Below are positions 29,954 through 30,196 of a stretch of 64,000 nt of DNA, one piece after another. This DNA comes from a virus. Lineage: Duplodnaviria; Caudoviricetes. The position numbers were made by a program, and so were the translations under genes. Where the stretch lies: IMG/VR virus record IMGVR_UViG_3300025450_001231; one strand, given 5' to 3'. The notes beneath the pieces were generated by a model. That model did not search any database and was not told the origin of the DNA. It worked only from the letters and a program-made list of their open reading frames with translations. Numbering within the stretch: the first letter of the stretch is position 1; the number at the start of each line of letters is the position of its first letter.

Positions 29954-29982
29954 TTGACAATCAAGACTAAATAAAATATAAT
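29954..29982 (+). promoter_or_regulatory. Consensus sigma70 promoter
   Basis: TTGACA(29954)-17 nt-TATAAT(29977). Confidence 0.9.
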
Positions 29983-29989
29983 AGATACT

Positions 29990-30133
29990 ATGATGACTAA
30001 CACTTTTAATCATTTGTGCAGACAAAACCAACAACCCAAACTAAGTCTGGGTGGCGTAGTAGCCTATTGGTCTATGACATCTGCAACAGAGATTAATAGT
30101 TCAGATCGTTTACCAAGCAGGGGTTTAAGTTAA
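29990..30133 (+). CDS. Putative leaderless leader peptide (47 aa)
   Basis: ATG at predicted +1; MMTNTFNHLCRQNQQPKLSLGGVVAYWSMTSATEINSSDRLPSRGLS; stop lies inside antiterminator arm. Confidence 0.5.
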   Translation: MMTNTFNHLCRQNQQPKLSLGGVVAYWSMTSATEINSSDRLPSRGLS

Positions 30134-30196
30134 CATATTCTATTAAAGTATTTTAACTTAAACCCCAGGACTAAAAACCCTGGGGTTTTTGTTTTT
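30120..30196 (+). promoter_or_regulatory. Attenuator-like switch: 14-bp antiterminator overlapping an intrinsic terminator
   Basis: GGGGTTTAAGTTAA(30120-33) pairs with TTAACTTAAACCCC(30153-66); terminator AAACCCCAGG(30160-69)/CCTGGGGTTT(30179-88) plus T-tract shares 30160-66. Confidence 0.7.

Follow-up and report, generated by a model that had tools for sequence, protein, structure and literature searches.

The locus described here raises the question of whether translation itself can decide how far transcription proceeds towards a large phage tRNA array. The locus lies within a stretch of 64,000 nt (the window), part of an uncultured tailed phage whose genes include a terminase, a UvsX-like recombinase and a helicase. 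This phage is present in many freshwater metagenomes, with 24 metagenome runs containing its DNA, none of them an RNA data set. Its closest cultured relative by terminase is the Pseudomonas jumbo phage PA5oct (55% identical), and a search of the GenBank phages with the window DNA returned a sole match of 73 nt, located under tRNA-Met. The initial annotation proposed that a promoter, a short ORF and two competing hairpins at the head of the tRNA region constitute a ribosome-mediated attenuator. The features of the region are as follows, with the evidence for each in brackets.

29954..29982, + strand: sigma-70 consensus promoter, TTGACA-17-TATAAT (12/12 match)
29990..30133, + strand: 47-codon leader ORF with codons for all 20 amino acids (frame, repertoire, relatives)
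29992..30110, + strand: long, imperfect rod hairpin into which the leader ORF body folds (folding, relatives, constrained synonymous sites)
30120..30166, + strand: antiterminator hairpin with a 14-bp outer and a 5-bp inner helix, the stop codon (30131-33) lying in its 5' arm (folds, covariation)
30163..30196, + strand: intrinsic terminator, CCCCAGG / CCTGGGG with a 9-nt loop and a U-tract (folds, covariation)
30200..30364, + strand: Shine-Dalgarno sequence AAGGAG and the 50-codon ORF2, which starts with GTG at 30212 and spans 30212-30364 (conserved family, purifying selection)
30369..30560, + strand: conserved structured noncoding RNA, lacking a promoter of its own (compensatory changes)
30564..30592, + strand: second consensus promoter with a TG extension (precedes the omega-like gene and the tRNA array)
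30616..35387, + strand: omega-like gene and array of 22 tRNA genes (Pfam, tRNA calls)

The promoter, the 47-codon ORF, its TAA codon at 30131-33, the perfect 14-bp pairing and the terminator were all confirmed at the positions first assigned to them. TTGACA occupies 29954-59 and TATAAT 29977-82, separated by a 17-nt spacer, and the leader ORF looks leaderless from its sequence, as its ATG (29990) lies just 7 nt past the -10 element. The peptide that it would encode matches no family in Pfam or PHROGs, and a reading of the transcript as a type I toxin mRNA was ruled out because this peptide is not hydrophobic. The sequence CTAAATAA (29967-74), located inside the spacer of the leader promoter, is kept in nearly all relatives and is missing from the consensus promoter at 30564; it may represent a second, late-type promoter or an operator.

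The stop codon of the leader ORF is embedded in GGGGTTTAAGTTAA (30120-33), which is complementary without mismatch to TTAACTTAAACCCC (30153-66) over 14 bp. In the terminator, CCCCAGG (30163-69) pairs with CCTGGGG (30179-85) and is followed by TTTTTGTTTTT, which extends as far as 30196; a simple terminator scan missed this structure because its loop is 9 nt long and the limit of the scan was 8. Four C residues (30163-66) are common to the antiterminator and the 5' side of the terminator. The two folds had been described as mutually exclusive, and since they compete for these four C residues only, the description holds for the four G-C pairs of the outer helix but not for the inner A-U portion of the antiterminator hairpin, which is compatible with a formed terminator. 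Among the local inverted repeats of the 64-kb window, the antiterminator hairpin ranks second strongest, and the pattern GGGG-N20-50-CCCCAGG occurs once in the window against an expectation of 0.07. The 211-nt transcript has a folding energy of -62 kcal/mol (z = -4.7).

In naked window RNA, the predicted probability is 0.99 for the antiterminator and 0.00 for the terminator; when the U-tract is excluded, the antiterminator is favored by only 0.9 kcal/mol. The overlap of 4 nt together with a 3-nt toehold makes fast strand displacement possible, so that the switch may be partial or graded rather than on/off. Two states that are nearly isoenergetic also fit a fixed partial terminator, and the downstream genes need some read-through anyway. 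The locus might accordingly be an ordinary small-protein gene followed by a constitutively leaky terminator, in which the upstream arm tunes a fixed level of read-through, and with it the proportion of short RNA to downstream transcripts, independently of translation. [quoted passage not shown]

Relatives of the element were collected from uncultured phages by two routes. A terminator-pattern scan yielded 120 loci, approximately 35 of which carry the element and 34 of which were counted as members, while an independent scan with the ORF-internal motif GATCGYACACCAGAG, in which the terminator was not pre-selected, yielded 51 further unique members, giving at least 85 distinct sequences. Every complete member possesses a sigma-70 promoter matching at 11-12/12 positions in the same place, followed by a leader ORF of 39-53 codons. 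The ATG is located either 6-10 nt past the -10 element, i.e., leaderless as in the window, or after a leader of 38-65 nt, which contains a 5' hairpin and an A-rich stretch resembling a Shine-Dalgarno sequence. All 31 of the loci scanned have the element immediately 5' of the tRNA genes and in the same orientation, and where enough sequence is available the array behind it comprises 15-39 tRNAs. The methyltransferase encoded upstream in the window has 38 relatives, only one of which (at locus L013) has the tRNA region adjoining; the element at L013 is homologous to that of the window, and its ORF is likewise 47 codons in length.

The initial annotation had pointed to covariation of the two helices and conservation of the stop position among related phages as checks on the model, and both were observed. 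The antiterminator hairpin of the members consists of three parts: P1 (typically GGGGUCC/GGACCCC), P2 (often GGAG/CUCC) and a variable P3. Among 34 members there are 20-21 distinct inner helices (P2 and P3), all of which are complementary. In the independently collected sample, the shared segment, CCCC or CCCT, covaries both with the 5' arm of P1 (GGGG or AGGG) and with the 3' arm of the terminator (GGGG or AGGG, or a G.U pair), and no A:C mismatch was found in these pairings among 86 sequences. Other compensated variants of P1 include UUCC/GGAA, UCUU/AAGA and the 14-mer of the window itself, and the P1 variants occur with 8 terminator stems in 21 combinations. Alignment of whole leaders with MAFFT and RNAalifold recovered the invariant terminator only, and the helices were therefore taken from per-sequence folds.

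The stop codon lies inside the antiterminator hairpin in all members, 27-37 nt 5' of the terminator stem and 11-27 nt past the start of P1. GGGGTCC is read in all three frames across the family, and compensating indels keep the stop codon in position despite these frame differences, a regularity that a constitutively leaky terminator does not explain. In experiments with the tR2 terminator, a ribosome terminating close by was shown to repress the terminator, with efficiency becoming maximal beyond ~30 bp (PMC4824070). A stop codon 27-37 nt before the terminator is thus placed such that a ribosome could open the antiterminator and leave the terminator free. An SD-like GGAG/GAGG sequence, which corresponds to the 5' arm of P2 (30115-30123 in the window), is present 8-12 nt before the stop codon in 71/83 leaders, compared with 3% of control windows; the terminating ribosome might be anchored there, or the sequence may be no more than a consequence of helix conservation.

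In naked RNA of the members, the probabilities of antiterminator and terminator sum to approximately 1, with means of 0.70 and 0.29, and when the U-tract is excluded, as in an elongation complex, the antiterminator wins in 31/33 cases by a mean of 4.2 kcal/mol. A protector (1:2) pairing of the kind that frees the terminator in classical leaders was not found, and the naked RNA favors the antiterminator. A candidate anti-antiterminator, GAUCG with GGGGUC, was rejected, as it would form just 4-5 weak pairs and was not seen in the ensembles. The geometry of ribosome-mediated attenuation originally recognized in the window alone thus appears to be upheld in the family by the location of the stop codon inside the antiterminator, by the covariation, by the preference of naked RNA for the antiterminator and by a leader frame that is open in 85/85 members.

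In these 85 leaders, the +1 and +2 frames contain totals of 259 and 371 stop codons; the counts for frames 0/+1/+2 are 0/115/153 in the first set of members and 0/144/218 in the second. Within the ORF body, indel lengths are multiples of 3, and the distances from the ATG to an invariant Trp codon and to an Asp codon take 5-7 different values, each one a multiple of 3. Entropy is flat over the codon positions, and pairwise pN/pS ranges from 0.4 to 2.6 (mostly 0.5-1.4) with low pS, so that amino acid change is near neutral. These patterns suggest that the sequence of the leader peptide is barely constrained while the openness of its frame is under selection, and a leaky terminator behind an ordinary gene gives no reason for this combination.

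The low pS of the leader is attributable to RNA structure. Among closer pairs, pS is 0.02-0.3 in the leader vs. 0.3-0.8 in ORF2, and a long rod hairpin takes up the ORF body of each member, with a mean z-score of -2.9 by dinucleotide shuffling in 32 relatives; covariation in the rod amounts to individual examples alongside these z-scores. The ATG region stays unpaired, the Asn-Asp-Arg-coding stretch supplies the partner of the 5' arm, and the apex is located just before the invariant Trp codon. This strong nucleotide-level constraint is not explained by the attenuator model alone. One possibility is that the rod shortens the period in which initiation can occur; another is that it has a function of its own. 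If the rod is the functional element, the terminated transcript of ~200 nt might be mainly a trans-acting or protein-binding RNA, possibly with a dual function like rnTrpL/peTrpL, and attenuation would be secondary or absent. Conservation of the rod in all members and of synonymous sites far beyond those of ORF2 would be expected of such an RNA, and attenuator RNAs that are active in trans are known (PMC6614838). A trans-acting RNA alone, however, needs neither an open frame, nor indels in multiples of three, nor all 20 amino acids, and it does not account for the competition between P1 and the terminator or for their covariation. We therefore regard it as quite improbable as a replacement for the attenuator, although a role in trans is compatible with attenuation as an added function.

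What the open frame may be selected for is indicated by the composition of its product. All 20 amino acids are found in 71/83 unique leader peptides (~47 residues), and the other 12/83 contain 19, whereas the ORF2 peptides average 16.3 kinds. By chance, a full set would be expected in 1.9% of windows of the phage's own proteins and in 3.2% of draws from the pooled leader composition. A more stringent control permuted residues within alignment columns, which keeps conservation and breaks compensation within each sequence; this column shuffle gave 19% all-20 peptides (maximum 33% in 2000 shuffles) vs. 86% observed. Scarce residues recur in varying positions, e.g., Cys is present at a mean of 1.00 copy per leader and is spread over 22 columns, while His occupies 15 columns and Tyr 17. 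There is therefore strong statistical support for selection on the leader to include all 20 amino acids, the set being kept by compensating gains and losses, upkeep that a fixed leaky terminator would not require.

The distribution of codons accords with a sensor of translation in general, as had been suggested from the single peptide of the window, and the all-20 repertoire gives that suggestion a sharper form. As noted for the window, runs of a single amino acid are lacking and many codon types are used: regulatory codon runs are not present in the leaders, each amino acid occurs mostly once or twice, and the number of distinct codons per leader is 35.4, compared with 28.2 +/- 3.0 under the null model. 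All 20 amino acids are already encoded upstream of P1 in 63/81 members, and in the window the set is complete even four codons earlier. Asp and Glu are mostly confined to a DRTPE motif 11-23 nt before P1, where a ribosome stalled on Glu would partly cover P1. The array of the window contains 22 tRNA genes and lacks tRNAs for Phe, His and Val; since these amino acids are included in the leader, the whole decoding system would be sampled rather than the phage tRNAs alone.

The genes beyond the terminator form a recurrent set. In 24/35 members, a canonical Shine-Dalgarno sequence and an ORF2-type ORF of 49-62 codons start 14-21 nt after the U-tract. The encoded proteins are small, helical and basic, rich in Lys, Glu and Arg, and share the motif ..EHTLT.EQ..KLI.DK.ERA..; they are under purifying selection (pN/pS 0.17-0.78, mostly 0.2-0.5, in the genome pairs also compared for the leader), with the third codon position being most variable. 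No family was found for ORF2 in Pfam or PHROGs, and a protein search with it returned only itself. Because a basic, helical protein of a conserved family is encoded immediately 3' of the terminator in 24/35 members and the rod is conserved as well, a phage or host protein, e.g., the ORF2 product, might alternatively control termination by binding to the rod or the antiterminator, comparable to autoregulation through ribosomal protein leaders. This alternative is very unlikely: ten of the 35 members are devoid of ORF2 and retain the whole switch, with the structured RNA directly 3' of the terminator, Pfam and PHROGs revealed no recognizable RNA-binding domain, and the all-20 signal would be left unexplained.

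The structured RNA, ~190-270 nt in length, is always located 5' of the tRNAs and 3' of the attenuator or ORF2 (other examples are L119:11365-11570 and L148:14060-14271). It contains hairpin loops with AACGAGG/AACGCGA and CACUNUAAACA, a junction with AACGGGCGG, and helices that vary in sequence and are still paired; in its 5' domain, compensatory changes occur at 15/19 predicted pairs. Neither the leader nor the structured RNA belongs to an Rfam family, whether scored at the gathering threshold or at E <= 10, and a resemblance of the structured RNA to RNase P RNA or to a T-box sequence is unsupported by Rfam. In many relatives, tRNA-Tyr lies directly 3' of the structured RNA.

How much of this region depends on the attenuator differs among phages. 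The initial annotation cautioned that rpoZ and the tRNAs have their own promoter at 30564, and this is correct for the window; a counterpart is present in only ~1/3 of relatives, and ~2/3 have no promoter before the tRNAs. In no member was a sigma-70 promoter matching at >=10/12 positions found in the interval that separates the terminator from ORF2 or the structured RNA; phage-specific, non-sigma-70 promoters downstream of the terminator are possible. The omega-like gene of the window (30616-30831; Pfam RNA_pol_Rpb6, 2.6e-13) lies downstream of the second promoter and ahead of the first tRNA, and the terminator scan detected no + strand terminator in the 30616..35387 region before 32046. Since the 30564 promoter drives the omega-like gene and the tRNAs regardless, the attenuator of the window would strictly gate only ORF2 and the structured RNA.

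Three observations concern the tRNA arrays themselves. Inside the array of the window, adjoining tRNA-Leu, 33683-33874 matches the group I intron family of Rfam (RF00028, 58.9 bits). Genes for tRNA-Ile(TAT) of unusual length (90-92 nt) recur in ARAGORN predictions for the arrays of relatives, e.g., at L013:5039-5130. A permuted tmRNA called by ARAGORN at L092 12326-12885 overlaps tRNA-Tyr and is probably spurious.

The best reading of the locus, and a probable one, is ribosome-mediated attenuation of transcription through a leader peptide that samples the decoding of all 20 amino acids. In the mechanism that we infer, host RNA polymerase would start at the consensus promoter and make the 47-codon leader. 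A ribosome following close behind the polymerase would reach the stop codon inside the antiterminator and keep the 5' arms of P1-P3 open, so that the freed CCCC could pair with the CCUGGGG 3' arm and transcription would terminate, releasing an RNA of ~200 nt. If the ribosome were absent, or late at any of ~40 codons, P1 would form first, CCCC would be sequestered and the polymerase would read through. The delay could arise from a shortage or cleavage of any tRNA, from amino acid starvation or from translation inhibitors. Read-through would reach the small ORF and the structured RNA and, in the window, would contribute further transcripts of the omega-like gene and tRNAs, while in relatives devoid of a second promoter it would directly supply the tRNA array. 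Slow decoding of any codon therefore probably leads to read-through into the small gene, the structured RNA and the tRNA genes. A broader and more tentative proposal, plausible though we would not yet lean towards it, is that the all-20 leader constitutes a universal decoding sensor, in which shortage or cleavage of any tRNA, whether through starvation, anticodon nucleases or other host defenses, would delay the ribosome and thereby turn on the phage tRNA array along with the small protein and the newly recognized structured RNA, and that the terminated rod RNA, which would be abundant, may additionally act in trans.

Comparison with known systems places the element near, rather than within, the described classes of attenuators. 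As in trpL, hisL, leuL, thrL, pheL and the multivalent ilv leaders, a short ORF is combined with alternative antiterminator and terminator hairpins, and in the classical leaders, as is proposed here, a ribosome at the stop codon masks the 5' strand of the antiterminator. Unlike these leaders, the phage element has no regulatory codon runs, and its targets are tRNA and noncoding RNA genes rather than genes of amino acid biosynthesis. In the absence of a protector (1:2) pairing, moreover, a lack of translation should result in read-through instead of the super-attenuation observed with classical leaders. Of the Rfam leader models, His_leader scored 20.6 bits against a cut-off of 49, and no other leader family matched. 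The element would work like a ribosome-mediated attenuator and lacks the codon runs, protector hairpin and Rfam match of the class.

Other attenuators resemble it in what is sensed. The pyrBI and pyrE attenuators of E. coli read the distance between RNA polymerase and the first ribosome, and a ribosome that is close behind blocks the terminator and causes read-through. The phage element would likewise sense this distance rather than one amino acid, with the opposite outcome, as a close ribosome here should open the antiterminator and bring about termination (pyrBI attenuation is cited in PMC4824070). A nearer analogue is the mycobacterial whiB7 uORF. In Mycobacterium smegmatis this uORF encodes 19/20 amino acids, and its broad composition sets the range of starvations to which it responds. 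A ribosome stalled within it tips the choice towards an antiterminator and away from an intrinsic terminator; one Trp codon suffices for sensing, and read-through goes up when the start codon is lost (PMC10274678). The broad amino acid content is shared with the phage leader, and the direction proposed for the phage switch appears to match. In contrast, the whiB7 leader is host-borne, controls a transcription factor, is enriched in alanine and varies in its repertoire, whereas the element described here is phage-borne, maintains all 20 amino acids, heads a tRNA array and a noncoding RNA, is often leaderless and forms a rod. There is no sequence relation between the two, and whiB7 is an analogue rather than a member of the family. 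The toiL uORF of the E. coli topAI-yjhQ locus is reported to be a general sensor of ribosome stalling (PMC12121999), a role similar to that proposed here; it resides in a host toxin-antitoxin transcript and has no link to tRNA genes. T-boxes also report tRNA charging through a choice between antiterminator and terminator, but they bind tRNA directly and contain no ORF, and the T-box model (Rfam RF00230) gave no match over 29900-30640 even at E <= 10. A literature search found no paper on leader peptide control of phage tRNA arrays or on an all-20 leader.

If the proposed mechanism is true, the quality of decoding itself would feed back on phage tRNA arrays, and the first phage products made when translation falters would be the small protein and the structured RNA. 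The phage tRNAs would also be tied to counter-defense against host systems that target tRNA, such as anticodon nucleases. An all-20 leader would be a cleaner general sensor than any host attenuator described, and it would offer a small, transferable module for reporting stress on translation. A related arrangement was observed outside the family, where three loci in unrelated phage contexts (L077:716-844, L094:3166-3294 and L144:1321-1447) carry an identical terminator stem, preceded by an upstream arm of 7-10 nt complementary to the 5' side of the terminator; other phage groups may thus possess analogous switches.
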